From: a virus
IMG/VR virus record: IMGVR_UViG_3300034066_001346
Coordinates: 1 to 64,000 of that record
DNA length: 64,000 nucleotides
Reading direction: 5' to 3' (one strand)
Shown: one piece after another, positions 1,380 through 24,042 of the stretch
Layout: each line of letters starts with the position of its first letter
Numbering within the stretch: the first letter of the stretch is position 1
Program-made: the position numbers and the translations under genes
Notes under the pieces: model-generated
What the model saw: the letters and a program-made list of their open reading frames with translations, nothing else
Told to the model about the DNA's origin: nothing
Database searches by the model: none

Positions 1380-1380
1380 G

Positions 1381-7157: not shown

Positions 7158-7163
7158 GAGAAA

Positions 7164-7768: not shown

Positions 7769-7770
7769 CA

Positions 7771-7799: not shown

Positions 7800-7802
7800 A
7801 GA

Positions 7803-7895
7803 ATTGTGTTAGTTGAAGCGTTTATTCGTTCCTAATACAATGTACTACTTATAGTACAAAACCCCAATTGGATCCGCCTCCAATTGGGGTTTTTA
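7803..7895 (+). ncRNA. Candidate ~90-nt three-hairpin small RNA
   Basis: Lies between a promoter and a 15-bp-stem terminator; no ORF; hairpins at 7803-7841, 7842-7857 and 7858-7893. Confidence 0.55.
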
Positions 7896-8062
7896 TATAT
7901 CTAAAAGTGGTATAATTAATTTATGCCAAGAGATCACTTTGCAAGAACAATGAGAAGCCCTTACTTTCAGTATTCTGAAAACCAAGAATTAATTGAATGT
8001 AAATGCATTAGATGTAAATGTGAAAACTTTTTTATAAACTTTTTTAAAAAGAAATAATATAT

Positions 8063-8665
8063 TTAAGCAATAAATAAACCTGGATACTGGTACATAAAAT
8101 CCATATATGAATATCTTACTCCAGATAAGATTTTTTTCACACCATTTCTATACTCTGGATTAGATGAAAATATTATTAAATCACCAGAATTTGGCTTATA
8201 CTCAATTTGTCTGTCTGGAAAATAAATTTCCCCTCCAGTAAAGTCTCCAAAAAAGGCACATATTTTATATTCTATTTTTATTTCAACTTCTTCTACTGGA
8301 GTAAAATTTGTGTAGGTTGGCTCATGAAGATCTCCTGGCAGCATTCTTATTAAAGAATTCATTTTATTTGTCCAGTACTCTGGAGCTATCAAATTAACTA
8401 TATTATCATGAAAACCTAATAAATAAAATCCAATATCATGAGATATTCTTCCATAAGTAAATAAATGTGAAATGTCTCCTTCTTCATAATTAAAATGCTC
8501 TTTTTTTGACTGATTTAAATCAAATGGAGCTAGCCCTTCCAAAATTAAATCTATTAAATCTTTTTTAAAGAAATTTTTATAAAGGTATATTTCATCATCT
8601 AATTTAATTACATCTTTATGATTTTTAAATTTTGGATCTAAATATCTAATTAAATCTTTACTCAT
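8063..8665 (-). CDS. 2OG-Fe(II) oxygenase-fold protein with degenerate metal ligands
   Basis: DFTGGEIYF..GDLIIF..GVKKILSGVRY fold motifs; HxD and distal His absent. Confidence 0.7.
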   Translation of the reverse strand: MSKDLIRYLDPKFKNHKDVIKLDDEIYLYKNFFKKDLIDLILEGLAPFDLNQSKKEHFNYEEGDISHLFTYGRISHDIGFYLLGFHDNIVNLIAPEYWTNKMNSLIRMLPGDLHEPTYTNFTPVEEVEIKIEYKICAFFGDFTGGEIYFPDRQIEYKPNSGDLIIFSSNPEYRNGVKKILSGVRYSYMDFMYQYPGLFIA

Positions 8666-8800
8666 TTTCTAAATCTATATCTTCAAATAAATTAAAGTCA
8701 AACGAGTCTCCGAGACCAATTCTTTTTAACAATTGATAAAGAGCATATCCAGAAGCAATTGATGCTAAAAAGCATAATATAGTTGTAAAAAATTTATTTT

Positions 8801-9721
8801 TCATTGGCCTGGCTTAATAACACAAATATTTTGTCCTGGCATAACATTTGATATTTCGCTTTCATTTTCATATACTCTCATTTCAAATTTTTTAGCCGCA
8901 AATCCTTCTTTTTCTTTTACTTTAAGAAACTCTTTAAAGTCTTCTGGATCCATGCTGTCTCTTGCATCTACAAAATCCTTGCTCCATGCTGAAGACAGAA
9001 ACTGTCTTATATAAAACTTATTTCCTTTTACAGGCTTTACTGCGTGAAAACGATCTGTTCTAAATATTAAAGCGTCTCCAGCTTCCATCTTATACTCTAT
9101 TGGTCTATCAATCAAAAAATATTCAAGTTCTTTGCCATCATAAACCGTAACAGCTTTTTCTGCAGTTTCTAGGTCTGCAAATATTATTTCTCCGCCTTCG
9201 TAATCATCGTTTATATAAATATTGCAATTAAAAATATGCGGAGATCCGCCAAACCAAGGTCTTCTATCTTGATGATATTCCATTGAAAGATTTTTTTCTG
9301 CAGATGTATCTGTTGACTCTAATACTACAACATCTGCAATTCCCCACCTATCCCATACATTTGGTCTAGTTCTATTAGCAATTAGCTCTTCATAAGAAGT
9401 TGGAAAGTCATAGCTTAAACCCAATGAATCAAAGTACTCTTTATTTAAATGATCCTTTTTGTAAACTGAAAGAATATCCCAAAAAACATCTAGGCACTCT
9501 TTTAGCAATTCAGCCCCTTCGCTTGTGTCATTTAAAAATGAATCATCGTCTGCTGGATATGCTTTTGCGTATTCTCCCCAGGGTCTCCAATCTTGCCATT
9601 GACCAAACCACTTGTCCTGCTTTATCTCTTTTTCTTTACGAATAAAAGCGGTGGCAGCTTGAGGGTCCTTTAACACATTTTTAAATAGAAATACGTCTTT
9701 AGATAGTATGATTGGTTTCAT
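8801..9721 (-). CDS. 2OG-Fe(II) oxygenase (P4H-like)
   Basis: HQD, YINDDYEGGE and HAVKPV motifs. Confidence 0.8.
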   Translation of the reverse strand: MKPIILSKDVFLFKNVLKDPQAATAFIRKEKEIKQDKWFGQWQDWRPWGEYAKAYPADDDSFLNDTSEGAELLKECLDVFWDILSVYKKDHLNKEYFDSLGLSYDFPTSYEELIANRTRPNVWDRWGIADVVVLESTDTSAEKNLSMEYHQDRRPWFGGSPHIFNCNIYINDDYEGGEIIFADLETAEKAVTVYDGKELEYFLIDRPIEYKMEAGDALIFRTDRFHAVKPVKGNKFYIRQFLSSAWSKDFVDARDSMDPEDFKEFLKVKEKEGFAAKKFEMRVYENESEISNVMPGQNICVIKPGQ

Positions 9722-9835
9722 ATGTCCATTATACTATAATAGATATTTTATAGTGCAGCTGTATATATTTGCAATATTAAACCTAAAATCATTGTTATTA
9801 CTGCAACTAGAATTACTTTAAATATAGTTTTCATG

Positions 9836-9908
9836 TGTCCCCACTTGGGCTTGAACCAAGGACCCACAGATTAAAAGTCTGTTGCTCTACCGACTGAGCT
9901 ATAGGGAC
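9836..9908 (-). tRNA. tRNA-Lys(UUU)
   Basis: Cloverleaf; anticodon arm ACAGA-CTTTTAA-TCTGT; T-loop TTCAA. Confidence 0.92.
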
Positions 9909-9913
9909 GGAAG

Positions 9914-9988
9914 TAGGAGTAGTGAGATTTGAACTCACAGTCGTTTGTATATAAGACAAATGCTTTAACCAAATTAAGCTATACTCCC
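9914..9988 (-). tRNA. tRNA-Ile(UAU)
   Basis: Cloverleaf; anticodon arm TTTGT-CTTATAT-ACAAA. Confidence 0.85.
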
Positions 9989-10075
9989 AAAATGAGAGTT
10001 AGCGTATTCGTAAATGCATCATACAATGATTATATCTTGACCTGCCCAAATATGTCAATATGGTATAATTAACCT

Positions 10076-10882
10076 ATGTTTAAAGATAACCCTAATATAG
10101 AGCAAATCGGTACAAACGTTTTTGTATACAGAAACTTTGTACCAGCAGAATTAGTTAAAACAATTAATGACAAAATGGCCACATACGAACTTGAAGACTA
10201 TAAAATTCAAAATGGTGAAGTTGCTATTAATTGGTACTCAGAGAAAAGCAGTAAGCTTACTCCAGAGTTATTCCCTGTATGGGACATGATTACAGAGCTA
10301 CTAGCTCCTGAACATTGCATTCACCCAAATTTATCTTTACTAGCGATGCGCCCAGGCGACACAATGTTTGTTCACTCAGATTCACCTGGAAGAGACATGG
10401 AAGAAGATCTTACTCAACCAGATAGATGGAACACATGCTGCATTATTGAATATGGTGTTTGTGTTTACTTTGGCGATTACGAAGGTGGAGAGATCTACTA
10501 TCCAAATATCAGCGCAGAAGACGGTTCAACACTCATTGACCATGACACTGACCCAAACTGCCTAACATATGCTGCAAAGCCTGGAGATCTTGTTATACAC
10601 GGTTCTACACACCCTTGGGAACATGGAGTGCGTGAAGTAAAATCTGGAATAAGATATTGCTACTCAAACTTCTCTGTTTTCTCACATGAGAATCCTGGAA
10701 CATTTCCAGTTCCTGGTTCTGAAGAAGAATTAGCACGTAGATCTGATCCTGGACTATGGATGACACCTCTTGGAGAAGTTAATCCACTTACTGGAGTAGC
10801 TCTAACAACCGAAACACATAAAGCTAAGTTTGGTGTTGGTGCCCCTACTCCTGTTGATACAGTATGGAATAAATCTTTATAA
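10076..10882 (+). CDS. 2OG-Fe(II) oxygenase (P4H-like)
   Basis: HSD, DYEGGEIYY and HGVREVKSGIRY motifs; promoter TTGACC..TGGTATAAT immediately upstream, so possibly leaderless. Confidence 0.85.
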   Translation: MFKDNPNIEQIGTNVFVYRNFVPAELVKTINDKMATYELEDYKIQNGEVAINWYSEKSSKLTPELFPVWDMITELLAPEHCIHPNLSLLAMRPGDTMFVHSDSPGRDMEEDLTQPDRWNTCCIIEYGVCVYFGDYEGGEIYYPNISAEDGSTLIDHDTDPNCLTYAAKPGDLVIHGSTHPWEHGVREVKSGIRYCYSNFSVFSHENPGTFPVPGSEEELARRSDPGLWMTPLGEVNPLTGVALTTETHKAKFGVGAPTPVDTVWNKSL

Positions 10883-11241
10883 TATTGCATTAAATAGTGC
10901 GAAAAAAGTGCGTCGGCGGTAGAAGAACCATATTTTTTATTTAATGTGGAATGTACACACTTATACTTACTCTTTATTCTTTGCTTTTATCTTTATAATG
11001 ATACTTCCAGATTTAGAGCATACAACCCCTATACCCCTTTTATGTTTTTAAAAGAGAACCCCGAAATTGTCCATTTATAAGATAGCAATTCATCGGTTGA
11101 ACTTGGGCGGGAACGCCCAAAGCCAGGATTGCATAATCTAGAAGTATATAATACACTTCCGTCATTATCGCACTTGGAGTTTAACCCCTTGATATTATCT
11201 CCGAAAACTGTCCAAGGTGATTAGTATAACATGGGAGATTT

Positions 11242-11916: not shown

Positions 11917-12054
11917 ACTCTAATTATACCAGCGTATAATCCTAGTCGACTACAATATCAGATCTCATAAAATGTTAATATATATTTTTCTTGTATGATA
12001 CACACCATTTAGAATGTCCGAATTGTCCGATAGTGCGACCATATGACCAGTCTT

Positions 12055-12070
12055 TGTGACCCTTATCACA
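12055..12070. promoter_or_regulatory. CRP/GlxR-type site TGTGA-N6-TCACA
   Basis: TGTGACCCTTATCACA. Confidence 0.7.
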
Positions 12071-12118
12071 TACCTTTTTTTAGAAATGTCCGAATTAAAC
12101 CCATTTTGGATTTGAATT

Positions 12119-12140
12119 TGTCAGTGGCTTAGTATAGTCT
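12119..12140 (+). promoter_or_regulatory. Early promoter TGTCAG-N10-TAGTCT
   Basis: Copy 1 of 13 with identical spacing. Confidence 0.7.
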
Positions 12141-12185
12141 TAAGACATAAGGTTAATCAAGGTGATTAACAGAAAGGAGTTAGAA

Positions 12186-13312
12186 ATGACTAACTCAAAC
12201 TTTGCAAGAGTAGCAACTCTTAGCGACTATCCACAAGGGTTAATGAACCTTTGTCAATGCGGACAGGTTGTTTTAGCCCCCGCTACAATTCACGACATTT
12301 GCCTACCAAATGGCACTTGCCTACATACCGCTTGCGGTAGAGACATTTGGGGAAACCCAATCGCCTAACGGCGTGTCTCCCCAATTTGTCACCGCTATAC
12401 GCTACAATTCCTACTATAACTACTAACGAAAGAAGAACAGACAATGACTATCACTTACTCAATCTGGCAAGGCTCTAAACTAATCTCGGTTAATAATGTT
12501 GCACATGAGGTCAAGGCTATTGACCACTTAATCAACTCGCTTAACGATAGCGAACTAGGCAAGGGTAAGAAATTTACCGCTAATGTAATGGACATCAAGG
12601 TAGGGGCTAACTAATGACTAAATGGGACACGATACAAGCAGATGTGCAAGACCAATACGCACACCTAGCAGAAGAAGAAATGTATGAGCAACTAATGGCA
12701 GAAGAAGAAGATGTATTCGGATTTGTTAAGGCTATACAGATTGACCACTTAACAGATGAACAACTAGATGAGGTATTCGACATGTTTGGAGATAAGTAAT
12801 GACTATCGAACTAAACGAATACGGCTTCATGTTTGACATGGGCGATTTTATCTATCTATCCCTATCATGGGCTTTTATTATCTTGTCCGCCCTTGTTTTT
12901 ATCGGGTATAAGGTTTATAAGAGAGTGCAAGCCCATAGATGGGCATCACTAGTAAAAGATGAACTATCTACAGATGAATGGGGTATCTAATGAATAGACT
13001 ACTTACTACACTAGTGCAACTATCTATTGCTATCCCCGCCCTATACATGGCACGCATTGTATGGCATGACTTTATTAGCGAGATGAAGGAGTTATTTAAT
13101 TGAGTATGACACAATTTGAAAGAGACCTAACTATAAAAGAAAGCTTTATGGATTTACTTAATGAGATTTATCCAGAGGTAAAGATTGGGTACTCTACCTT
13201 TACCCCCGCCGAGATCTTGGAGTGTTGCGACCCTATCGCCTTTAACATTGGTGTTATAGAGCATGAGGACTACATGCGTGAGTGTGGCATGCTAGATGAT
13301 GAAGATATGTAA
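12186..13312 (+). other. Cluster of small early hypothetical ORFs (12186-12368, 12444-12614, 12614-12799, 12799-12990, 12990-13103, 13100-13312)
   Basis: Tightly packed plus-strand ORFs with TAATG-type overlaps and RBS. Confidence 0.7.
12387..12408 (+). promoter_or_regulatory. Early promoter TGTCAC-N10-TACAAT
   Basis: Repeated motif; CGGCGTGTC just upstream at 12369-12377. Confidence 0.7.
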
Positions 13313-13327
13313 ATCATACTAGCCTAG

Positions 13328-13435
13328 CGGCGTGTCGGCTTGACAATAGTCAAGCTGGCCCCCAAAGGAGAGGGGGCTGTGGATAAGTTAAGAAGGCCTG
13401 TGGAAAAACCCTGAAATTTTGTGAGCAACATCACA
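13328..13435. repeat. Composite intergenic element (hairpins, DnaA box, TTAAG-N16-CCCTGAA, CRP site)
   Basis: GCCCCC-N8-GGGGGC 13358-13377; TGTGGATAA 13378; CRP site 13420-13435. Confidence 0.85.
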
Positions 13436-13452
13436 TCAAATAGATTAGGATT

Positions 13453-13474
13453 TGTCGGTCATGTGTGATAGGCT
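13453..13474 (+). promoter_or_regulatory. Early promoter TGTCGG-N10-TAGGCT
   Basis: Repeated motif. Confidence 0.65.
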
Positions 13475-13499
13475 TTCGTTATCAACGAAAGGAAAACTT

Positions 13500-13953
13500 A
13501 TGTGTGCAACATGCTATGCTAACGCTAACGGAATAAAGTTTTATTCTGTTTCACCATCTACTCTATGCGATACTCATTTCTTTGAGTGGCAAGAGGAAAA
13601 AATGTATTGGGAATTAGACCGCTCAACGGAAGGACTTTACATATGAGCACTTTTGTATCTGTAAACTCTGTATGTGGTGCAGTATCTACCACAATCGATA
13701 TGTATGATTTAGAATTAAATCCGCATGGTGTTATCTGTTGCGATAATTGTCAAAGCATTGTGTTATGCCGTGAGGCGTGGAATTTTTTATACAAGGGGGT
13801 AAAGTAATGAATACAGATCTGTTAAAAGATGTCGCATCTATTGCAAAAGAAAAGCATGGCGATAATTGGCTTGCTTATCTTTGGGGCGCATCTCAAGTTT
13901 TGCTTAACGAAAAAGATTTGCAAATAATTTTAGAAACTTTGCAAGATAATTAA
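13500..13953 (+). other. Three small early ORFs (13500-13646 and 13643-13807 Cys-rich; 13807-13953)
   Basis: AACGAAAGGA RBS and overlapping stop/start codons. Confidence 0.6.
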
Positions 13954-13960
13954 ATAAAGG

Positions 13961-14102
13961 CGGCGTGTCGACTTGACAAAGTCGGCAGCTGCCCCCAAAG
14001 ATGAGGGGGCTGTGGATAACTTACGTATAAATGTGGAAAACCCCTGAAAAATTGTGGATAACTTGTGTACGACACGCCCGAGATCTTGTGAGATTTATCA
14101 CA
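13961..14102. repeat. Composite intergenic element with 2 perfect DnaA boxes and a CRP site
   Basis: GCCCCC-N8-GGGGGC 13991-14010; TGTGGATAA at 14011 and 14053; CRP site 14087-14102. Confidence 0.85.
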
Positions 14103-14150
14103 TGGCTTGAGCGTCTCACATCTTGGAATTACTGGCTAGTAATTAGTTTA

Positions 14151-14172
14151 TGTCAGTGGGTTTTGGTACAAT
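14151..14172 (+). promoter_or_regulatory. Early promoter TGTCAG-N10-TACAAT
   Basis: Repeated motif. Confidence 0.75.
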
Positions 14173-14202
14173 ACTCTTATCAACAAACGAAAGGCGGACA
14201 CC

Positions 14203-15081
14203 ATGTCAGCAAATGTCTATACAATCGAAAGCCTACTTGTAGGAAAAACCTATCGCTCAAAGTCTCTTACTGGAGAAATCATAGACGCAGAAAAGTCTGA
14301 TGATGTCTGGTATGCAGATTGCGATACTTATAAAGTGCAGGTTCGTCCTCACTATTCAGCACCGCTAAACCTCAAAGACACTTATCGTTATTTGGCAGTA
14401 AAGATTTAACGGGTATCGAAACAGGGGTAGTTTAGAGGGAGTCCTCGCCCAATGTCGTAAGTAAGAACCCTCACAAAATTTGTCAGCCCTAACTGATACA
14501 ATAACTTAAACAAACAAACGAAAGGAAAACTATAAATGGGAAATTTCTTAGATGTAATGGACGAGGGAACTATCTCCGTCATCACTTGCGAGGATTGCTT
14601 AGGATTTGGCGCAATCTTTTGGGGAGATGAAAACTCCTATGATGTAGAGCCATGCGATTGCGTAACTAACGAAATTGGAGATTACTAAAATGTATAAGAT
14701 TACTTTATCCTATGACGGAAATTCTGTTCGCTGGAGTAATGACTATGATGATGCATTGGAAGCATTTACCGCATTTGCTAAATTTACTGATGTCGGATTT
14801 GCTAACGAATACTCAACGATTAACCTATCAATGCCAACAGGCAAGATGTACACAAAAGTAATTGACCGCATGGGAAAGGTAACAATTAAATGATGACCCG
14901 TAAAGACTATGTCGCAACCGCAGAAATTCTAAAGTATGTTAGCGATAAAACTCATCCCGCTGTTTTTTCTAAAATGGTAAATGATTTTGCGGAAATGTTC
15001 GCAAAGGATAACGACCGATTTGATGTAACACGATTTCACGAAGCGAGTGGATACAATGTTCCAAAATTCACTTCGAGATAA
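14203..15081 (+). other. Small early ORFs (14203-14409, 14536-14688, 14690-14893, 14890-15081)
   Basis: RBS-preceded plus-strand ORFs. Confidence 0.65.
14481..14502 (+). promoter_or_regulatory. Early promoter TGTCAG-N10-TACAAT
   Basis: Repeated motif. Confidence 0.75.
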
Positions 15082-15290
15082 AGTAAAACGCATTCAGGAA
15101 TTGCGCCGCAGTAATGCGGCGCAACCTGTTCGCAATAAAAAAACTTACACACGCAAAATAAAACACAAAAAGAATTCTGATCATGATTGATTTTATTGCT
15201 GCAGTAATTTCAATTGGAATTATTTTTGCAATGGCCACACCGCTATACGTTGCATATAAAGTGTGGAAGAGTTGACAATTCTTTAAAGCT

Positions 15291-15367
15291 GCCCCCAAAG
15301 GTGCGGGGGCAAAGATCTCTTTAAGTCAAGCACCAAAACACCCTGGAATTTTGTGAGGTTTATCACA
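15291..15367. repeat. Composite intergenic element with CRP site
   Basis: GCCCCC-N8-GGGGGC 15291-15310; TTAAG..CCCTGGAA; CRP site 15352-15367. Confidence 0.8.
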
Positions 15368-15405
15368 TAAATAAATTAGATAAACATTGGGCGTGTTGGA
15401 ATTTT

Positions 15406-15427
15406 TGTCAGTGGACCATGCTACAAT
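15406..15427 (+). promoter_or_regulatory. Early promoter TGTCAG-N10-TACAAT
   Basis: Repeated motif. Confidence 0.75.
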
Positions 15428-15457
15428 TCCATTATCAAACAAACGAAAGGTAAAACA

Positions 15458-16328
15458 ATGGTATCAATCGCACACTCTCTAAACTTCGTAACAGAGGTTG
15501 ATGAAACTAACCCAACAGGTGCCCGTCTATTGGCACTTGATAAGGCGTCACAAATTGCTATGCTAGAAGGCGCATTAAAGTCTATGGTGCTACCTGCAAT
15601 TTATCCAGTACTAGAAACAATTAACGAAGGTGGCTCTTGGGCTATCGTAAAGGTGGCAGAATAAATGGGATACAACACTGCGCTAGATTTATCTAATGAA
15701 TTAGATTTAGAGGTTGCTCTTGGTTATCACTTGCAAGGTAATCACTATCCACCAGTTCCGCTTTCTATGGTGGAGCCTTGCATAGAAGCAATTGATGCTT
15801 TCTATGATGAGGACTACAATCGTGAAATTGCTTTACCTGAAGGCGTGTTATGGCGTGGACAGGTTACTGCACCCGCATCCGCAATTGTTGATGCACACCA
15901 CTTAAATGCTTGGCTACCAGAGGAGGAATACTAATGAACAATCTTTATTCTATCTTATCCGAAAGACACCCAGACGGAGACTTTAATGAAATGGATCTAT
16001 GGGAGGCTATCGCAGACTCAGAAGGCTTGGAGCTGAACGAAATTATGGACGGCGACCTAACAGAATACTTGTGATGCTTATCACACCCCAGGGGCTTGAT
16101 AAATGTCAGACCCTAATGCTACAATAACACCCTAAACAGAAAGGAAGCAAAATGACAGTAAATGGATACACTTACAAGGTTGGCGATTTATTCACCACTC
16201 TTAAGTCAAAGAAAACTGGAGTAATCAAAGAGATTATTCCTAACGCATCTGGCTCGGTGCGTGTGCTACTGGAAATGCCAACAAAGGAAACTCGTTGGAC
16301 AACAGTTAGCAACAATAGCCTAGTATAA
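15458..16328 (+). other. Small early ORFs (15458-15664, 15665-15934, 15934-16074, 16152-16328)
   Basis: RBS-preceded plus-strand ORFs. Confidence 0.65.
16070..16125 (+). promoter_or_regulatory. CRP site (16070-16085) plus early promoter TGTCAG-N10-TACAAT (16104-16125)
   Basis: TGTGATGCTTATCACA; repeated promoter motif. Confidence 0.75.
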
Positions 16329-16351
16329 GGAAGTGGAGGGGTCTCACTATT

Positions 16352-16373
16352 TGTCAGACCCCTCCGCTATAAT
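16352..16373 (+). promoter_or_regulatory. Early promoter TGTCAG-N10-TATAAT overlapped by a 10-bp inverted repeat
   Basis: GGAGGGGTCT at 16335 pairs with AGACCCCTCC at 16356. Confidence 0.75.
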
Positions 16374-16409
16374 ACAATTAACCAAACCAACTAACGAAAG
16401 AGGAAACAA

Positions 16410-16832
16410 ATGGCTAGAGGAAAAGCAATCTCAGTAAAAATCGCAACACCAAAGGTAATCAAGGCACTTGAGGCAAAGTTAGTAGAACTTAACGCCAACT
16501 ATGCTAATCAAGAAACAAACGAAGCAAAGTACAAGAAGGCTATGGAAAAGTGGCAGAAGGAAATTACTGCCTATGCCGTTTCTAACATCAAGAAGGCAGA
16601 AAACTTCCGTACCAACTATCGTGCTTGGAATAACACTCTCAACATTGACTTTGATTTGACAGTTACACAATCAGACCTGCCAACAGAGCCTGAGCGTGAC
16701 TTTGAGCAGATGGGTCGTCACACATACCTAGAGCAAAAGCAAGAAATCGAAAACGCAATTCGTATTCTCAAGATGACAGATGAGGAAACAGTTAATACCA
16801 GCACTTACAATGCGGTTGCTCGTTATCTCTAA
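16410..16832 (+). CDS. Early hypothetical coiled-coil protein
   Basis: 140-aa ORF with a strong RBS. Confidence 0.75.
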   Translation: MARGKAISVKIATPKVIKALEAKLVELNANYANQETNEAKYKKAMEKWQKEITAYAVSNIKKAENFRTNYRAWNNTLNIDFDLTVTQSDLPTEPERDFEQMGRHTYLEQKQEIENAIRILKMTDEETVNTSTYNAVARYL

Positions 16833-16841
16833 ATAATCTAA

Positions 16842-16869
16842 CGACCTGAGCATGTCGCCAAACTGCTCA
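16842..16869 (+). ncRNA. H-type pseudoknot motif (stem-CTGAGCA-stem-AAAC-TGCTCA), copy 1
   Basis: Three covarying copies in the window. Confidence 0.6.
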
Positions 16870-16904
16870 CACCTTCGGGTGTCCCTACTAACAAAGGTAA
16901 TAAA

Positions 16905-17165
16905 ATGGCTAATCGTTTCAGAATAGAAATCTATGATGAAAACAAGCAAAATGATTTAACAATTTATTCAGAGCAAGGCGTGGACAAAGACTATTTAACT
17001 GAATTAGTTTATAGCAACATAGCACGCTTTGATGGTAATGTAAAAGCATTTGTATTCGATACAATTAAAAAGAAGAAGACAACTGCAATGTTTTTACCAA
17101 TGGAAATAATTACATCTGTTAAATCTAAACTATCTAATACTGCTAAGGAATTACACTTAGCATAA
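16905..17165 (+). CDS. Early hypothetical protein
   Basis: ORF with AAAGG RBS. Confidence 0.7.
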   Translation: MANRFRIEIYDENKQNDLTIYSEQGVDKDYLTELVYSNIARFDGNVKAFVFDTIKKKKTTAMFLPMEIITSVKSKLSNTAKELHLA

Positions 17166-17169
17166 AGCT

Positions 17170-17206
17170 TGGGGCGGGATCTTAATGCCTTTTGTGTCCC
17201 GCCCCA
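17170..17206 (+). terminator. GC-rich hairpin terminator
   Basis: TGGGGCGGGA..TCCCGCCCCA after the stop codon. Confidence 0.6.
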
Positions 17207-17225
17207 TCTTCCCAACTTTAAATCT

Positions 17226-17364
17226 GCCCCCAAATATGTGGGCGGTTATCCACAGACTTACGGCCTCCTGTGGAAAACCCCTGAAAATTTGTGAGATTCA
17301 TCACATTTTATTTGTCGACAAATGACTGTCTAATCTTGTTAATGTCAGTGCCCTATGTTATACT
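17226..17364 (+). promoter_or_regulatory. Composite element with DnaA box (17246), CRP site (17290-17305) and early promoter (17343-17364)
   Basis: TTATCCACA; TTACG-N16-CCCTGAA; TGTGAGATTCATCACA; TGTCAG-N10-TATACT. Confidence 0.8.
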
Positions 17365-17396
17365 CAGTTTATCAACCAACCGAAAGGAAATAAATT

Positions 17397-18401
17397 ATGG
17401 CTCATAATCTAGAAACTGAAAATGGCGAAGTTGCTTTTGCTTTGCGTGGAAAACCAGCATGGCATGGATTAGCAAATCGCATCTTTAATCAAGATGAAGA
17501 AGTTACAACACAAACAATGCTTAATGAAGCAAAGTTGTCTAATTGGAATGTTCGTCTATCTCCAATCACTGAGCACATTCCAGAATCATGGAATGATGTT
17601 TCTACCGCATCTCTTGTGTTGCGTGACAATCCATTCAATGGCGGAACTGATGTTCTTGCTACTGTTGGTAAGCGTTACAAGCCAGTGCAGAATGAAGAAT
17701 TGTTTGCATTTGCTGATGCTATTCATGATGCAGACCCAAATTGTTTTTGGGAATCTGCTGGCTCATTGCGTAGCGGTAAAGTTGTTTTTGGTACTGTGGA
17801 CATTCCCCGCACAATGGTGCTTGACCCACAAGGTGCAAATGACGAGACAAAACTTTATTTAATTGTTTGGACATCTCATGACGGGTCAGTTGCTGTTCAG
17901 GCTGCTGTTACTCCTGTTCGTGTTGTATGCCAAAACACTCTTAACCTTGCAATGCGTAATGCAAAGCAATCTTTTAAGATTCGTCATACACAATCAGTTG
18001 AAGGACGAATTCAAGTTGCCCGTGAGACTCTCGGTCTTGCTCTAGGATACTTTGATGAATTTGAGAAGGAAGCACAAGCAATGTTCAATCAATCAATTAC
18101 TGATGCAGAATTCTCAAAGTTGATTCAGACAATCTACCCAAAGCCTGAAAAGGATTCTAAGGGTGCGCTAAAGAAGTGGGAAAACAAAGTTGTTTTGCTT
18201 GATGATTTGTATCATAACTCACCAACCAATGCGACAATCAAGGGAACAAAGTGGGGCGCATTTAATGCACTTACTGAACGCCTAGATTACTATCGTACTG
18301 CACGAGGAAATTCTGAATCACTTATTGCAGGTGCATCAGGATTTGACCCTGTTCTTACCGCAGAAAAAAATAAAATTAAAAAATTAGTTTCTGCGTTTTA
18401 A
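17397..18401 (+). CDS. DUF932 / TIGR03299-family phage-plasmid protein
   Basis: PAWHGL, YKPVQN, SHDGS, TPVRVVCQNTL, IRHT and GTKWGAFNALTE motifs. Confidence 0.85.
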   Translation: MAHNLETENGEVAFALRGKPAWHGLANRIFNQDEEVTTQTMLNEAKLSNWNVRLSPITEHIPESWNDVSTASLVLRDNPFNGGTDVLATVGKRYKPVQNEELFAFADAIHDADPNCFWESAGSLRSGKVVFGTVDIPRTMVLDPQGANDETKLYLIVWTSHDGSVAVQAAVTPVRVVCQNTLNLAMRNAKQSFKIRHTQSVEGRIQVARETLGLALGYFDEFEKEAQAMFNQSITDAEFSKLIQTIYPKPEKDSKGALKKWENKVVLLDDLYHNSPTNATIKGTKWGAFNALTERLDYYRTARGNSESLIAGASGFDPVLTAEKNKIKKLVSAF

Positions 18402-18408
18402 TAAATAA

Positions 18409-18437
18409 AAATCCTGAGCAAGATTTAAAACTGCTCA
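18409..18437 (+). ncRNA. H-type pseudoknot motif, copy 2, directly 5' of the tRNA pair
   Basis: AAATC-CTGAGCAA-GATTT-AAAAC-TGCTCA. Confidence 0.6.
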
Positions 18438-18443
18438 CCATTT

Positions 18444-18517
18444 GGTCTGTTAGCTCAGTTGGTTAGAGCGCTACCCTGTCACGGTAGAGGCCGTCGGTTC
18501 AAGTCCGATACAGATCG
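18444..18517 (+). tRNA. tRNA-Asp(GUC)
   Basis: Cloverleaf; CTACC-CTGTCAC-GGTAG; G73. Confidence 0.92.
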
Positions 18518-18521
18518 CAAG

Positions 18522-18595
18522 GTGCCATTAGCTCAGTTGGTTAGAGCCCCGAACTCATAATTCGGTCGTCGTAGGTTCAAGTCCTACATGGCACA
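18522..18595 (+). tRNA. tRNA with CAU anticodon (elongator Met or Ile2)
   Basis: Cloverleaf; CCGAA-CTCATAA-TTCGG; paired 1:72 so not an initiator. Confidence 0.88.
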
Positions 18596-18615
18596 CCTTA
18601 CAGTTGCAGAAAGAT

Positions 18616-18708
18616 GCCCCCATACCTGAAGGCAGCCTAATTCCGTTACGACCAATTTAAAAAAACCCCTGAAATCTGTTGACATTTGTCAGTGGCATCC
18701 GCTATAAT
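18616..18708 (+). promoter_or_regulatory. Composite element plus early promoter (TTGACA 18679; TGTCAG-N10-TATAAT 18687-18708)
   Basis: TTACG at 18646 and CCCTGAA at 18667; repeated promoter motif. Confidence 0.8.
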
Positions 18709-18738
18709 TCTGACATATCACCAACGAAAGGATATCAA

Positions 18739-19392
18739 ATGCCAAACTGGGTATTTAATGGATTAACCGTAGAAGGTAATCCTGAATCAGTTAAGAAAAT
18801 GATGGCTCAATTAAATAAGCCATTTACTCAAATGCATGATTCATGGGATGTAAGTAAGAATACATTCATGAAGAAGAATACTTTATATGCAGAGCCTGTC
18901 TTTGCATTTCATAATATCTATAACTACATGGATGCTGGTATTACTGAAGAAGTATATCTTGGTCAGCCTGACTATTCCCTCCCAATTTCAGAAGCAATGA
19001 AGTGTCTTACTGATGACTGGTATAACTTTAATATCCGTGAGTGGGGAACTAAATGGGATGTTGCCGTATCTGTAAATGACAAGTATCCTGATACTAATAT
19101 GGAGGAAACCGCCAATGGTGATAACCATGTAGTTCATTATAATTTTCAAACTGCTTGGGGTCGCCCAATGGGTGCATTAACTAAACTATCTGCACAATAC
19201 CCTGACTTGCTATTTACTTTATCATATGAGGAAGAGACTGGCTGGGGCGGTGAACTAGAAATCCTTCGTGGTGTAGTTATCTCAGAATCAGAATACGATA
19301 ACATTTGTCGTGAATGTGATGAGACTGATTGTTTAATCTATGATGATGAAAAGGGTGTAGAGACATGCCAGAAGTGTGGGTATGAATCATGA
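18739..19392 (+). CDS. DUF1281 / YubB ferredoxin-like domain protein
   Basis: MPNWVFN, DWYNFNIREWGTKWD, FQTAW and YEEE motifs. Confidence 0.75.
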   Translation: MPNWVFNGLTVEGNPESVKKMMAQLNKPFTQMHDSWDVSKNTFMKKNTLYAEPVFAFHNIYNYMDAGITEEVYLGQPDYSLPISEAMKCLTDDWYNFNIREWGTKWDVAVSVNDKYPDTNMEETANGDNHVVHYNFQTAWGRPMGALTKLSAQYPDLLFTLSYEEETGWGGELEILRGVVISESEYDNICRECDETDCLIYDDEKGVETCQKCGYES

Positions 19393-20009
19393 CAGATTTA
19401 ATTTCATCTAAATATACATTTGTCTGTGACCCAAATGAATGTGATTCTTTAATCGAACTAACATCATCAGATGGATTTGGATTCCCATCTGGTGTGACCG
19501 AGCTCACATGCCCTTGTGGTCGCAAGACTACATTATTGTCAGTGGAGCATGCTACACTACCAACAACAAACCAAACGAAAGAGGAAAAAATGGACCAGCC
19601 AGTAATCGATAACCACTACATGACACGAGACTTCCTTGAGTCACAGTTAGTAGAAAACAAAGCACGCATAGCACAGTTAGAAGAACAGATTCAGCGTGTA
19701 ACTCAGCGTGACTATGCAACCGCATCAACCTTAAATAAGTTGCGTGATGACATGAAGATATTTACTCTGGAGGGACTTGATGACGATTCTATTACAGAAT
19801 ATCAAGCCGAAGAAATTGCAAGCATCTGCGGTTTCGAACTAACAAATGAATTTGAGTTGACTGTAACAGTTCAATATTCAGTTACAGTTAATGCTAGAAG
19901 CGAAGAGGATGCTATTAATTCAATTCACGATACAGACTTTGACACAGTGTCATATGATGAACCAATTACATATTTGTCATCATCTATAGATTCAATCGAG
20001 GTGGACTAA
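19389..20009 (+). CDS. Zn-finger-like N-terminus fused in frame to a separately promoted gene (internal ATG 19590)
   Basis: CDPNEC..CPCG; internal CRP site 19493, promoter 19537-19558, RBS 19574. Confidence 0.65.
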   Translation: MTDLISSKYTFVCDPNECDSLIELTSSDGFGFPSGVTELTCPCGRKTTLLSVEHATLPTTNQTKEEKMDQPVIDNHYMTRDFLESQLVENKARIAQLEEQIQRVTQRDYATASTLNKLRDDMKIFTLEGLDDDSITEYQAEEIASICGFELTNEFELTVTVQYSVTVNARSEEDAINSIHDTDFDTVSYDEPITYLSSSIDSIEVD

Positions 20010-20940
20010 TGTACTTTGAACTTACTGCACCAACTAAGGTGGCCTATGCACGGGCCACCTGGGAGGCGGAGATGCTTGGTTTAGATCCTGAAGCCAGCGA
20101 AGAGCCGTTGACATTCAACATTGGAACTGGTAGTATTGAGAAAGTAACACACCTTAGAGAGAAATACAATCTTGAAGAAGTGTATGTTTCTGAATTCGAA
20201 CCAACGGGATATATAAGGAGTTAAAGTGTCAGACTACAAAGAAGGATTTACAGACGGGTACAAGTTTGCTCGTGAAGAACTAATGGAGAAGTTGCGTGAG
20301 ATTGATATCACCGATATCGATTCATGGTTACTTAATCAATTAGCAGATATGATTGAAGGCAACGACCTGTGACAGAAGACTTAACTAGATGGATTGGCTG
20401 TGACCAATGTGGCACGGCTCAAGCAATGTATGTAGTTAAACTAGTAGAAGGTGAGCTTTTCTTTTGTGGCCACCACTACAATGCAAGCAAGCGTGGCCTT
20501 GACAAGGTCGCATATGAAGTAGTAGAATTAAACAAAACCGAAGCAGTACCTACATTAGAAGAGGCGGAACTATAATGGGAGACAGAGCAAATTTTGGATT
20601 TAAACAAAACAGCGGTGACACATTGTTTTTGTACGGGCACTGGGCAGGTCACAACATGCTTGGCAACTTGGCAGCAGCGCTGTCTGCAGCAGAGCCAAGG
20701 TGGGGTGACTCATCCTATGCAACACGAATTGCTACATCACATTTAATTGGAGATGAATGGACTTCAACAACTGGTTGGGGCTTTAGCATTAATCGATTGG
20801 ATGACAATGAGCACAAGGTACCTGTTGTCAATTGGGCAGAACAAACCGTAACTCTTTTTGAAGAGGACCTTACTACAGTCGTAGCAAAGTTCGGCATTGC
20901 TGAATTTGTAAATAGGTATACATTAGTCTCAGTTGACTAA
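20009..20940 (+). other. Early ORFs (20009-20224, 20227-20372, 20369-20575 with CxxC..CGHH, 20575-20940)
   Basis: Overlapping plus-strand ORFs. Confidence 0.65.
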
Positions 20941-20957
20941 TATGATATAATAGTATT

Positions 20958-21082
20958 TTAGGGTGCTTCTATCTAGTCGTATGGCCAGGAGCTAAGTAAG
21001 GCAGAGATTGTTACTTTCGTTGGTTACTCTTAGCAGCCCTAATCTATGGTCCCCCAGGTAAGATCTGGGGGATCTTCTTTTT
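20958..21082 (+). ncRNA. Candidate trans-acting small RNA antisense to the early-gene RBS leader
   Basis: TGATATAAT promoter (TATAAT 20946-20951); closing stem TTAGGG/CCCTAA; seed CTTTCGTTGGTT 21014-21025; terminator 21050-21082; no ORF. Confidence 0.65.
21050..21082 (+). terminator. Intrinsic terminator
   Basis: TCCCCCAG-N7-CTGGGGGA followed by TCTTCTTTTT. Confidence 0.8.
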
Positions 21083-21219
21083 GCCCACAAAGACATGAGG
21101 GTATATTATTCTCTTTAAGAAGTCAAGTAAAAATCCCCTGAAATTTTGTGAGCTTTGCCACAATGTGGCGGGTATCACATAGGAAATCTATTCCATTTGT
21201 CAGTGCCTTAATATATAAT
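21083..21219 (+). promoter_or_regulatory. Composite element, two near-consensus CRP sites (21147, 21164) and early promoter (21198-21219)
   Basis: TTAAG at 21115 and CCCTGAA at 21136; TGTCAG-N10-TATAAT. Confidence 0.75.
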
Positions 21220-21243
21220 AATCACATAACGAAAGGGATAAAA

Positions 21244-22732
21244 ATGGAAGCATTTACAGATACAGTAGGAGAGCATATTCTTGGAGCAATTCAAGTAGAT
21301 ATTGAGCAACATCTATTTGAGCAATGGAACAATGCTAACTTAGATGAAGGCTCAGCATATGCAGAATATAAGTTTATGCAATTTGCACCTGATAACTTAA
21401 AACAATCATATAATGAATACTACGGGTATATTGAAGGAGATGAGTTCTTACTATGATGTTAGGATATACTGAAATAGATATAGATAGAATGAAGTTTGCT
21501 TTGAATATGGCTGCTTTCTATTTACCGCCAGCCCAAGAAGATATCAAAATTAGATTAGAAGAAGTTCATGAGTTTTTAGACAAAATGCTAGCGGAAGGGA
21601 AAATGTAATGTTAGGTTATTCTAATAAAGATCTAGATGAAATGGTCTATGCAATTCAATCTGTAATAACTACCGTGGATTCCAATGATGACCCGTTTTTA
21701 CACGGGAACTTATGGAAAGCACAGGAGTTTCTACAAGGACTATGGGCAGAGGGTTATTTTGACTAAGTCATCCCACTTCCTAGAATATATAAAGCTTCAT
21801 TTAATTAGTCTTATCCAGGACTTAGATAAGTTACATTCAACTGATGATAACTTTAAATTTGTTGAAGGACAAATTGAGGCAACCAGGCATTTATTGTCAG
21901 TGGCAACTGATATAATGAACTCTACTAACGAAAGGTATGAATAATGAATATAACATCTAGAGAAGTTACTTATCGTTCCGCCGTCGAACAAATCTTTTTT
22001 GAGGACGGGACTGAATTAGTAATAACAATTGGCGCTCCTGCCGAAGGCGGAGGCGATATCGATATTGAATATAATTGGGTAGAAGGAAAGCCTGATTGGG
22101 CAGACAACTTAAATGAATCAACACTAGTGAACTATGAGGTAATCTAATGAATCAAGAAGACATTGGGCTCCCGCCCCATTTGCAACGCATGGTCAATGCA
22201 GGAGTATCAGGCCTTGACATTATCCACGGTGAACTAAAGAACTTAATGCTGATTGCCGAGCAAGAACTTGCAGACGCAATCGAACGGGAAGAGGAGTCAG
22301 AAGAAGCAATGGACTCCATGGTCCGTACGGAATGTGAAGGCGCACTAGACACCTTGGTAGCGCTATATGAACTTACTTACCAACTATCATTTGCGATTGG
22401 AGCACGGAATGAAGCCTGAAGATAAAGATAAACTAAATAAGTGTTTAGAGATCTTGGACACCACCGACCTTGGGCTATCCATGGTATGGCTGTGGACCTG
22501 GTCGACTATTCAAAACATCGTTAGCGATGACAACTGGACTGCACAGGCAACCCTTGATGAGATGTGGGAGCACCTGTGTGAGGCTGTAGAGGCAGGCCAG
22601 GGATTCTCCTTAGAGTACGGAGCAGAACAGCACCAGGACGATGTACTTGAATGGATGTTAAATCGTGGGTACATCTTGGACCCACTAGATTCACTTGATG
22701 ATGAGGATGAAGAAGATGCAAGCGACGAGTAA
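21244..22732 (+). other. Early small ORFs (21244-21456, two MLGY-starting paralogues near 21453 and 21608, an ORF ending 21944, 21944-22147, 22147-22419, 22409-22732)
   Basis: Packed plus-strand ORFs; internal early promoter at 21895-21916. Confidence 0.6.
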
Positions 22733-22934
22733 ATATATCAATGAGCAATTAAATAAGGCACAGGAGCTTTTGTGGGGTGGGTCAGAAACAGAGAACATTC
22801 AGGCCCACAACATCGTTGCTAGTTTAATTAAACATCTAGAAAAAAACTAAATATAGGCGGAATATCTATTTACAATTTCTGTAAATTGATATATAATAAA
22901 TACAACAACTTATATCTCTTGAAAGGGGATTCAA

Positions 22935-23084
22935 ATGACAACAAAGCGTGAATATCTAAAGCAGCAAGGCATTACAGTAGGAGCCCGTGGCCGTTTCTCA
23001 GGAGCAGCCAAGGTAGCTTTGCAAGAGGCAGTAAACAAGGGCATTACCTTCACAGCAGAGGCGCCAACTAACAAGGCTAAGTAA
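22935..23084 (+). CDS. Lsr2-like DNA-binding mini-protein (49 aa, not in ORF track)
   Basis: MTTKREYLKQQGITVGARGRFS matches the Lsr2 C-terminal RExxxxxGxxVxxRGR AT-hook; own promoter TTTACA-N17-TATAAT (22869-22897), RBS GAAAGGGG and terminator. Confidence 0.7.
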   Translation: MTTKREYLKQQGITVGARGRFSGAAKVALQEAVNKGITFTAEAPTNKAK

Positions 23085-23096
23085 CAAACTAGATCG

Positions 23097-23130
23097 AAGG
23101 GGTGGTTGAGTCAAGGCTTGCCACCCCTTC
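23097..23130 (+). terminator. Hairpin after the Lsr2-like gene
   Basis: GAAGGGGTGG..CCACCCCTTC. Confidence 0.6.
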
Positions 23131-23167
23131 CCTATTGTGGTAAAATCAACTAAGAAAGGCGGAACCA

Positions 23168-23530
23168 ATGGCTAAATCACCAGCAGACAAAGTAGCAGAC
23201 CAACTAGTAGAACTAACAGAGAACCATTTCTTTAATCCAGCAATCTTTGGTCGAGTACTAGCAGACCAACCACTTTATACGACAGACCGCATTATGGAAA
23301 TGGTTGCTCAAATAATTAGTTACCAAGCCAAGCGATACAAGACGGAAGCAACGAACGGCAAGACAAGCGAAGGCTTATTCCTTGCTAAAGAGTTAGATAG
23401 AATGCTTAAACATCTAACAGATTCCTACAAATGGAATAATCTTAAATTACCTCAATCAAATAAAACACATTCCCAACTTAAAGAAGAGCCAAGTATAAAT
23501 TCTAAGAAGTCTTGGGTCAAGTTAAATTAA
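23168..23530 (+). CDS. Hypothetical protein, last plus-strand gene of the island
   Basis: 120-aa ORF; AAGGCGGA RBS. Confidence 0.7.
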   Translation: MAKSPADKVADQLVELTENHFFNPAIFGRVLADQPLYTTDRIMEMVAQIISYQAKRYKTEATNGKTSEGLFLAKELDRMLKHLTDSYKWNNLKLPQSNKTHSQLKEEPSINSKKSWVKLN

Positions 23531-23549
23531 TTAAACATAGCTCACAGAA

Positions 23550-23594
23550 TTATCCACATCCTTATCCACAGGGTGTGGATTTTTTTGTGGATAA
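23550..23594. promoter_or_regulatory. DnaA-box cluster (3 perfect, 1 partial); candidate origin or ejection-stop region
   Basis: TTATCCACA at 23550 and 23562; TGTGGATTT at 23574; TGTGGATAA at 23586; AT-rich non-coding tract follows. Confidence 0.7.
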
Positions 23595-24042
23595 AATGTG
23601 TGGGCATGGGGCGAAATTTTTCTATTACGACAACATAATAAAAATCCCTGAAAATTATATAGAAATGTCGACAAATCTATTTAAATACATACAGAATTGT
23701 AGACAAATTGCCATAAATTGTCCAGAATATAATAGAATAAATATACATAAATATTGGACAAAGAGGGCGAAATTGTCTATTTACGACAGTTGACAAAAAT
23801 TCCCTGAAATGTATCTATTGACAAATATGGGGGAATATGCCAGATTAGACAAAACATTACGAAATGTCAATCATTAGGATGACGCCCAATTACATGTAGT
23901 AGATTTGTCGATAAATAGATAGTAATCCAGGGTAAATTAATAGTAAATTATTTCATAGATACATAGATCTATGCAGTCAAAATGGGCTTCTAAGGGGGTT
24001 TTAAGACCTTTATAAAAGGCGGGGGATACTAGGATATGGAGC

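Follow-up and report, generated by a model that had tools for sequence, protein, structure and literature searches.

A candidate early regulon in a freshwater actinophage: PafBC-type promoters, phased CRP-type palindromes and a putative leader-pairing RNA

Results

An island of small genes with repeated upstream motifs

The window analysed here comprises the first 64 kb of the 96.8-kb IMG/VR virus record IMGVR_UViG_3300034066_001346 (estimated to be 81% complete), and the system under study is an island of small genes whose upstream regions repeat a promoter element of actinobacterial PafBC type, together with several further motifs and a structured RNA. The island is delimited as follows:

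12055–23530, + strand: island of ~35 small open reading frames (ORFs) of early or host-takeover type (from the ORF list), between two gene blocks on the − strand

The flanking − strand blocks carry genes for nucleotide metabolism, replication and structure, and the G+C content of the window is ~37%. The source is a probably lytic, low-GC freshwater actinophage distantly related to the Streptomyces BE/BK-cluster phages. Its assignment as an actinophage is based on the presence of WhiB (37721–38065, on the opposite strand and outside the island; the sole whiB) and of a DnaE-type polymerase (Pol III alpha) that displays 57% identity to the versions of Streptomyces BK/BE-cluster phages. The only recognisable island proteins are DUF932, DUF1281_C, DUF7455 and an Lsr2-like protein of 49 residues; the DUF932 gene (17397–18401) shares 52% identity with a counterpart situated in the long terminal repeat of Streptomyces BE phages. 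When 35 proteins (33 encoded by island ORFs and two by flanking genes) were scanned against Pfam and PHROGs, the Lsr2-like protein was the only regulator revealed, and WYL, HTH_11, CRP-HTH, cNMP-binding, sigma-70 region 2 and DnaA domain IV were all absent from the phage record. Neither an integrase nor a resolvase was found in the phage, and the INPHARED set contained no near-identical phage.

Motif counts were compared with 100 shuffles of the window, and 80 related loci were gathered through their DUF932 proteins (88–99% identity) out of 260 relatives. The first-pass annotation had described a single motif grammar repeated across the island; all of its layers lie far above the shuffle expectation, and those of the island (12.0–23.9 kb) recur in 80/80 related lake-phage loci, on the gene strand only. 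Upstream of DUF932, in 63 distinct orthologous sequences, the motif blocks show conservation of 95% or more, in contrast to spacers that drift. These blocks comprise the G/C box, the DnaA box, TTACG, the palindrome, the GTCGACAAAT word, TGTCAG, the −10 and the ribosome-binding site, with CCCTGAA somewhat more loosely conserved, and they are therefore selected sites, more than copies of one cassette.

PafBC-type core promoters

The core element TGTCAG-N10-TAnnnT occurs 12 times in the window, against 0.69 expected, and always on the + strand (12119–21916). Inclusion of the variants TGTCGG, at 13453, and TGTCAC, at 12387, brings the total to 14. The spacing is 10 bp in 14/14 copies, and a search with 9–11 bp added none in the island. 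The copies, all on the + strand, are:

12119–12140, +: PafBC-type promoter TGTCAG-N10-TAGTCT, with a CRP box 64 bp upstream
12387–12408, +: PafBC-type promoter, variant TGTCAC-N10-TACAAT, followed by the leader octamer at 12425
13453–13474, +: PafBC-type promoter, variant TGTCGG (the mycobacterial consensus form)
14151–14172, +: PafBC-type promoter
14204–14225, +: extra exact TGTCAG-N10-TACAAT, starting one base past the start codon of ORF 14203–14409
14481–14502, +: PafBC-type promoter
15406–15427, +: PafBC-type promoter
16104–16125, +: PafBC-type promoter
16352–16373, +: PafBC-type promoter
17343–17364, +: PafBC-type promoter of the DUF932/tRNA unit, both boxes at least 95% conserved in 63 orthologues
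18687–18708, +: PafBC-type promoter, also with a perfect TTGACA 18 bp from the −10
19537–19558, +: PafBC-type promoter inside ORF 19389–20009, followed by a leader and an in-frame ATG at 19590
21198–21219, +: PafBC-type promoter
21895–21916, +: PafBC-type promoter

The copy at 14204–14225, which lies inside the ORF that it would serve, may be a chance occurrence or an internal promoter.

Judged by sequence, spacing and position, this element matches the class of PafBC-dependent (RecA-NDp) promoters, which operate in mycobacteria and other Actinobacteria by "sigma adaptation" (PMC8635444, PMC11804915, PMC6789036). The in vivo consensus of Mycobacterium smegmatis is tGTCgg(N10)tA(N3)T, in which the PafB helix-turn-helix reads the GTC triplet of the "−26 element" (−23 to −28), the −10 is canonical and no −35 exists; the RNA polymerase with sigma-A alone is inactive on these promoters, and PafBC sits between sigma domain 4 and DNA (PMC8635444). 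PafBC is switched on by single-stranded DNA (ssDNA) through its WYL domains (PMC11804915). The earlier description of TGTCAG-N10-(−10) as an anonymous piece of grammar omitted its match to this published class. The phage promoters share with the mycobacterial ones a GTC box at −28 to −23, exactly 10 bp from TAnnnT, the lack of a conserved −35 and a variation limited to box positions 5–6. They differ in that ~14 copies stand in tandem before small genes of unrecognised function rather than before DNA-repair genes, in that the majority have a TGn extended −10 and, at the fifth box position, A instead of G, and in the frequent presence of an upstream CRP-type box, a feature that has not been reported for PafBC promoters of hosts. 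The phage box often continues as TG(G), as in the older RecA-NDp motif.

The same pattern was observed in the relatives. In a leader-anchored collection, the hexamer placed 10 bp before the −10 was TGTCAG in 419 cases, TGTCGG in 44 and TGTCAC in 7, the variation being confined to positions 5–6, which PafB does not read. The logo of 816 distinct copies presents no information upstream of the box except a weak A run, has no −35 and reveals a G at −14, that is, an extended −10. In a sister clade of eight loci (L255, L210, L214, L217, L230, L257, L258 and L259; ~47% G+C in L255) the same box-N10-(−10) units are followed by ATG only 6–7 nt after the −10. An ATG just past the −10 is the arrangement of actinobacterial leaderless mRNAs; it gives an indirect indication of the transcription start, expected 6–8 nt past the −10 in this promoter class, and provides independent support for promoter status. 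The island units are almost certainly real promoters, and it is likely that they depend on PafBC. Since the phage lacks WYL, HTH_11 and sigma-70 region 2 proteins, the reader would be the host PafBC, making this ssDNA and DNA-damage sensor most likely the dominant host input.

Ordinary −35/−10 promoters were also considered as an explanation of the island and rejected, as a sigma-70 scan returned 35 sites against 36 in shuffles. A further observation concerns the 206-codon frame 19389–20009, which holds a CRP-type box, conserved in relatives despite being coding, as well as a PafBC-type promoter, a leader and the in-frame ATG at 19590; the frame may thus yield two products, one that includes a zinc-ribbon-like N-terminal part and one that is shorter.

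CRP-type palindromes in helical phase

Half of the promoters carry a perfect CRP-family palindrome upstream. TGTGA-N6-TCACA occurs in seven perfect copies in the window against 0.20 expected, all of them in the island (12055–19508), and no perfect copy was found in the rest of the genome outside the window. The sites, with their approximate centres relative to the inferred transcription start and no strand assigned, are:

12055–12070: CRP-type palindrome, centre ~−84.5
13420–13435: CRP-type palindrome, ~−53.5
14087–14102: CRP-type palindrome, ~−84.5
15352–15367: CRP-type palindrome, ~−74.5
16070–16085: CRP-type palindrome, ~−54.5
17290–17305: CRP-type palindrome, ~−73.5, conserved in orthologues
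19493–19508: CRP-type palindrome within coding sequence, ~−64.5

The distances from palindrome to TGTCAG are 64, 33, 64, 54, 34, 53 and 44 bp, which corresponds to a period of 10–10.3 bp (R = 0.96; 0/20000 random sets were equally periodic), so that the phasing claimed in the first-pass annotation holds for all seven perfect sites. Among 295 distinct segments from relatives, the preferred spacings are 34, 44, 54, 64/65, 75 and 86 bp, and an out-of-phase peak at 49/50 bp is traceable essentially to a single orthologous promoter, together with another that has two boxes in tandem. The boxes that lack a bipartite neighbour (12055, 16070 and 19493) present the same phasing. With the start set 7 nt after the −10, the inferred centres fall at ~−54, −64.5, −74 and −84.5.

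These sites resemble both class I CRP promoters of E. coli and the CRP-Mt/GlxR sites, with which they share a perfect palindrome placed upstream at whole-turn offsets, and actinobacterial CRP recognises the same TGTGA-N6-TCACA palindrome (PMC4117774). Compared with E. coli class I promoters, the phase is ~3 bp off the optimum and the core promoter is of PafBC type; the upstream DNA path may differ in a PafBC complex, which would bear on this offset. On balance, the palindromes would be read by a host CRP-family protein. That they serve to sense cAMP is conjecture, and the cAMP dependence of actinobacterial CRPs is variable.

DnaA boxes and a bipartite element in upstream modules

Upstream of the palindromes lies a second group of motifs. 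The DnaA box 9-mer TTATCCACA is present in 8 copies in the window against 0.91 expected, 7/8 of them in the island, and the bipartite element TTAMG-N16-CCCTGAA in 7 copies against 0.61 expected, all on the + strand (13388–23808); the remaining 33 kb of the 96.8-kb record contain no copy of the latter. The element described in the first-pass annotation as TTA(C/A)G-N16-CCCTGAA is thus present, and its spacing proved not to be strictly 16 bp, given an N15/CCCTGGA variant at 15321 and the frequent use of both N15 and N16 forms in relatives. The modules are:

13358–13415, +: G/C-box hairpin, DnaA box 13378–13386 and TTAAG-N16-CCCTGAA with a weak DnaA box in the spacer
13991–14061, +: G/C-box hairpin, DnaA boxes at 14011, 14032 (weak) and 14053 in 21-bp steps, and bipartite element 14021–14048
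15291–15348, +: G/C-box hairpin and N15/CCCTGGA bipartite variant (15321–15348)
17226–17285, +: G/C box, DnaA box 17246–17254 and bipartite element 17258–17285
18646–18673, +: bipartite element without CRP box, 14 bp before a PafBC-type promoter
21115–21163, +: bipartite element, then a degenerate CRP-type box (one mismatch)
23540–23920, no strand assigned: convergent zone with four DnaA boxes as an inverted repeat (23550–23594), two 53-nt direct repeats and GACAAAT-type repeats

The geometry of the modules was established from 280 distinct bipartite copies in relatives. A G/C-box hairpin precedes the element in 72% of them, in agreement with the hairpin of the earlier grammar. A perfect DnaA box is found in 40% of the modules, almost always 12 bp before TTAMG and/or 9 bp past its start (positions 21 bp apart), which confirms that these boxes occupy fixed module positions. 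TTAMG is followed after 15 or 16 bp by CCCTG(A/G)A. A CRP-type box follows in 56%, with a commonest offset of exactly 4 nt, and a PafBC-type promoter lies at most 170 bp away in 80%. The element does not resemble a sigma-A promoter. An alternative-sigma promoter was rejected, because no match to the actinobacterial SigD, SigE, SigF, SigH or WhiG consensus was apparent and two copies have no downstream + strand gene. These two copies (23625 and 23781) reside in the 53-nt direct repeats of the convergent zone, one in each. The four DnaA boxes of this zone lie within 45 bp and adjoin AT-rich repeats, and the zone is possibly an origin or a DnaA sink. More generally, the DnaA boxes may serve transcription control, titration of DnaA or the marking of an origin.

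Three side observations relate to these regions. The DnaA inverted repeat at 23550–23594 also scores as a terminator. GACAAAT-type words are concentrated in the island, with 17/24 genome copies. The word GGCGTGTC occurs four times, in the island only (12370, 13329, 13962 and 14071), just past operon ends and before G/C-box hairpins.

A shared leader and a structured RNA complementary to it

The regions downstream of the promoters share the octamer AACGAAAG, which has 12 copies in the window against 1.37 expected. Ten of these are on the + strand in the island and each of the ten sits between the −10 and the ATG, as the first-pass annotation had stated for an A/C-rich leader ending in this word:

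12425–21934, +: A/C-rich leaders ending in AACGAAAG, at 12425, 13484, 14186, 14517, 15442, 16393, 18723, 19574, 21228 and 21927

Among 816 distinct promoters the leader is ~24 nt long and comprises 52% A, 28% C, 15% T and 5% G. GAAAGG constitutes the ribosome-binding part, with AAC immediately 5′. The reverse complement of the leader is found at 21014–21025, between an extended −10 and a strong terminator that, judging by sequence, would delimit a small RNA:

20944–20952, +: extended −10 promoter of the small RNA
20959–21043, +: structured RNA core (85 nt), a three-way junction of P1, P2 and P3, whose P3 loop carries CUUUCGUU (21014–21021)
21048–21084, +: intrinsic terminator of the RNA, a 12-pair stem plus T run

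The P2 stem contains a small inner hairpin, and CUUUCGUU, the exact complement of the leader octamer, is arranged around a YUNR-type UUCG turn in the apical loop of P3. The fold is upheld by 37 distinct sequences, in which 96% of cells are paired versus 29–50% in slid controls, 8 pairs present compensatory changes and the covariation score is 0.219 versus 0.009–0.047 in slid controls. The island RNA complementary to the leader that had been proposed from the sequence is therefore a covarying three-stem RNA with an exact octamer complement in its P3 loop. In Rfam 15 only tRNAs reach the gathering threshold, and the best sub-threshold matches over the RNA are far below the cut-offs; by its predicted structure, the RNA is a new family.

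The octamer is the sole part retained in the octamer-carrying P3 loops, which otherwise differ in sequence and size. Eight loci possess the RNA scaffold with a short P3 lacking the octamer, and these have 0 leader octamers in 88 kb versus 4.4 per 10 kb elsewhere; they are the phages with leaderless genes. The octamer and the leader word are invariant where present, such that no base-by-base compensatory changes can be observed between them. The predicted duplex of the RNA with island start regions averages −15.1 kcal/mol versus −10.9 kcal/mol for other phage genes (p = 8e-6). It is reasonably likely that the RNA pairs with the leader. A role as a repressor is a weaker proposition, possible and somewhat doubtful. 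A cis hairpin at 13473–13491, in which the octamer faces a complement, was rejected, since that complement overlaps the −10 and is upstream of the inferred start.

In many relatives a TGGTATAAT-type promoter, absent in several lineages, lies upstream of the RNA, and most of these promoters have AGTCAA at the position of the PafBC box, a word that is inverted in the window. A TGnTAnnnT promoter at most 50 nt from the RNA is present in 25/32 distinct upstream sequences (strict first pattern). From this strong promoter we infer the timing of the RNA: it suggests that the RNA is made together with the early genes, so that a limiter, or feed-forward element, would describe it better than a late switch. 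As a separate observation, the divergent RNA at L053:12800–13000 has a short P3 without octamer, and its inner P2 hairpin loop, ACCCUUUC, is complementary to the GAAAGG ribosome-binding site. In the leaderless clade, a search for repeated targets of the variant RNA loops found none.

Distribution of the layers in more distant phages

Of the layers, only the promoters of PafBC type, the cluster of DnaA boxes and the scaffold of the RNA persist in the sister clade, whose RNA is transcribed from a canonical −35/extended −10 promoter. The terminal repeat of the Streptomyces phage Jay2Jay contains no TGTCAG, CRP, DnaA or bipartite motifs; it displays hairpin-promoter-leader cassettes with ordinary −35/−10 spacing and different sequences. 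The absence of layers from the sister clade and Jay2Jay identifies them as lineage-specific add-ons, and the Jay2Jay repeat indicates that they are not ancestral to the wider family. The co-occurrence in relatives anticipated in the first-pass annotation thus holds in 80/80 related loci and fails in the sister clade, where promoters of PafBC type persist without CRP boxes, bipartite element, leader or anti-leader loop.

Other features of the window

Directly 3′ of DUF932 lie two tRNA genes that would share its transcript from the promoter at 17343:

18444–18597, +: tRNA-Asp and tRNA-Met, at the end of the DUF932 unit

The gene for the Lsr2-like DNA-binding protein of 49 residues (phrog_6269; 22869–23084) is preceded by a canonical TTTACA-17-TATAAT promoter, has a different ribosome-binding site and may be an immediate-early gene outside the PafBC-type set. 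The word ATGTCCGAAT is found twice at the left island edge (12014–12095). Its complement resembles the CGGACA words before promoters of the Jay2Jay terminal repeat (L090, Jay2Jay 1–11000), and similar words precede two promoters in L255; a word of this type may be the conserved site of a family-wide phage protein. An Ala/Thr-rich surface-type protein (32744–33904) has a 75%-identical copy on the 23-kb contig JBBALJ010000051.1 (L089), the sole result of a genome-contig scan, which was binned in a Bacteroidia metagenome-assembled genome (MAG) and is most likely a mis-binned phage contig. An Atlas look-up with the phage Hsp20 gave viral clusters only.

Discussion

A candidate regulon driven by PafBC

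Taken as a whole, the island would on balance be best explained as a PafBC-driven early regulon with a phased CRP-family site, a DnaA/bipartite flank and a leader-pairing RNA. In this model, a block of early, host-takeover type is cut into ~14 short transcription units, each starting from a PafBC-class promoter, at which the housekeeping RNA polymerase of the host would work through PafBC placed between sigma-A domain 4 and DNA. The phage lacks a PafBC-like protein and would most likely borrow that of its host, so that early transcription would respond to damaged or single-stranded DNA in the infected cell, the latter perhaps generated from the incoming phage DNA itself. A CRP-family protein on palindromes one to four helical turns apart, and hence on a common face, could act as an upstream activator touching the polymerase, while perfect DnaA boxes occupy fixed module positions beside the bipartite element. 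The transcripts would share a short, G-poor leader in which the conserved octamer overlaps the ribosome-binding site, and a ~125-nt phage RNA with its own promoter and terminator would pair with these leaders and tune, probably lower, translation of the set. The motifs, their geometry and conservation, the RNA structure and its complementarity to the leader are established here, whereas the identity of the binding proteins, the signals that they read and the direction and timing of the RNA effect are what we infer.

Several observations weigh against this model. Regarding the core promoters, the presence of PafBC and CRP in the host of the phage is an assumption, as is a host DnaA preference for boxes of the TTATCCACA type; moreover, the TGn extended −10 could allow sigma-A to fire without PafBC, and at least three promoter copies also have a −35-like hexamer at 17–18 bp. 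Among the palindromes, those of one orthologous family are displaced from the common phase by half a turn, and the centres, in phase with one another, deviate by ~3 bp from the classic class I positions of E. coli (−61.5, −71.5, −82.5 and −92.5). Both the sister clade and the Jay2Jay terminal repeat lack CRP boxes, bipartite element and leader, and the sister clade also lacks the anti-leader loop. With respect to the RNA, the co-loss of leader and loop octamer concerns one clade and possibly one event, and a weak inner stem is predicted to include part of the octamer.

Alternative readings

The RNA might not be antisense to the leaders at all and instead act as a protein-binding or ribosome-directed scaffold, or represent the processed 3′ end of an upstream operon. 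This is unlikely, though far from negligible: conservation of the P1/P2/J2-3 scaffold reaches further than that of the loop and extends to the leaderless clade, where no repeated target of the new loop was found, and some relatives have no terminator after the RNA. Against this stand the exact complementarity of the octamer to the sole conserved leader word, its exposure in an apical loop and its loss together with the leader, as well as the divergent L053 RNA, which presents an anti-ribosome-binding-site loop in another hairpin.

A rather unlikely alternative is that TGTGA-N6-TCACA constitutes the operator of a dimeric phage regulator, or acts on the adjacent bipartite element, and is not a host CRP site. 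The palindrome lies exactly 4 nt after CCCTGAA in 93/156 cases, which fits this proposal, as do the ~3-bp phase offset and the absence of boxes from sister clades that retain the promoters. However, all ten specified bases fit the CRP consensus at seven sites, the boxes without bipartite element at 12055, 16070 and 19493 keep their phasing, and no recognisable CRP-like or other HTH gene is found in the phage.

It is more improbable still that TGTCAG is read by a phage protein, either a MotA-like activator made or injected early, as for T4 middle promoters, or a repressor like that of the asymmetric L5 stoperators. Phage clades with 37% and 47% GC, which may infect different hosts, both retain the box, most island proteins have no known fold, and the geometry resembles that of a T4 MotA box plus −10. 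These points contrast with a match to the PafBC consensus that is exact in sequence, spacing and position, with variation only where PafB does not read, and with the lack of any WYL/HTH protein found in the phage.

Copy-and-paste of terminator-promoter cassettes that shuffle small genes, as in T4-type promoter-early stem-loop (PeSL) elements, would make the co-occurrence of motifs a matter of inheritance rather than signal integration. The modules 13325–13435 and 13958–14061 are obvious duplicates, the gene content between cassettes differs among relatives, and Jay2Jay has an analogous hairpin-promoter-leader repeat with other sequences. As a full account this is improbable, because motif blocks are at least 95% conserved in one orthologous promoter whose spacers drift and because the constant 21-bp and 10-bp distances indicate that binding is under selection; the cassette process is compatible with a PafBC-driven regulon rather than opposed to it. 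Equally improbable is the model of the first-pass annotation, in which TGTCAG has an unnamed reader, the energy, replication and division states are sensed through CRP, DnaA and WhiA/WhiB, respectively, and a small RNA shuts the set off late: its CRP and DnaA motifs and its RNA complementarity are real, but TGTCAG-N10-TAnnnT has a named actinobacterial reader in PafBC, the WhiA/WhiB layer finds no support, the WhiA core GACAC being barely enriched (19 in the island versus ~12 expected from its genome-wide density; 93 genome-wide, with the longer word GGCGTGTC present four times and confined to the island) and whiB lying outside the island, and the strong, constitutive-looking promoter of the RNA argues against late expression.

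Relation to known systems and significance

The components of the PafBC-driven regulon proposed here are each of a known kind, while neither their combination nor the exploitation of PafBC promoters by a phage appears to have been described before; no paper placing this promoter class in a phage was found in the searchable library. In T4 middle promoters, which work by sigma appropriation, as here, an activator box close to the host −10 substitutes for the −35 (a comparison with T4 is also drawn in PMC8635444), whereas the adaptor would be a host protein in our case and is MotA/AsiA of the phage in T4, and the sequences are unrelated. T4-type PeSL elements likewise place stem-loop and promoter cassettes between small variable early genes. 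The takeover modules in the terminal repeats of SPO1 and of the Streptomyces BE cluster (Jay2Jay) share the dense small ORFs, each or every few with a strong promoter and ribosome-binding site, and the BE repeat also shares the DUF932 gene; the Jay2Jay cassettes differ by their ordinary −35/−10 spacing and their lack of TGTCAG, CRP and DnaA boxes.

For the RNA, the nearest parallels are found in post-transcriptional control. T4 RegB cleaves at GGAG and T4 RegA acts on early ribosome-binding sites, whereas antisense phage RNAs are represented by c4 of P1/P7, sar of P22 and OOP of lambda. RegA and RegB resemble the present case in using a sequence common to early ribosome-binding sites as a handle, and differ in being proteins. 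The loops of c4 RNA mask a ribosome-binding site on a phage mRNA in a similar way. In contrast to the known phage antisense RNAs, one RNA would here address ~10 transcripts through an 8-nt loop word presented on a new three-way-junction scaffold.

As a tentative extension, which we consider unlikely to hold in full, a lytic phage would use the ssDNA alarm of its host as ignition. PafBC would be fired by incoming or attacked phage ssDNA or by phage-inflicted damage, CRP-family proteins and DnaA would gate individual units, and the same promoter type, in most relatives perhaps driving the leader-pairing RNA, would form an incoherent feed-forward loop that caps early protein synthesis.

To date, descriptions of sigma adaptation by PafBC concern the DNA-damage regulon of mycobacteria. 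If the assignment is true, the presence of this promoter class ~14 times ahead of the early genes of a phage, and in hundreds of lake-phage contigs, would add PafBC to the host factors that phages exploit, and this exploitation would provide a concrete reason for PafBC status to affect phage sensitivity; recent work reportedly links PafBC to mycobacteriophage resistance. This abundant group of uncultured phages would also offer a testbed for combinatorial control through a PafBC box, a phased CRP-type site and DnaA boxes. The RNA adds a new structured family with a plausible target, one octamer in ~10 leaders, and, if confirmed, it would be an RNA counterpart of the control of early messages exerted by RegA and RegB in T4.

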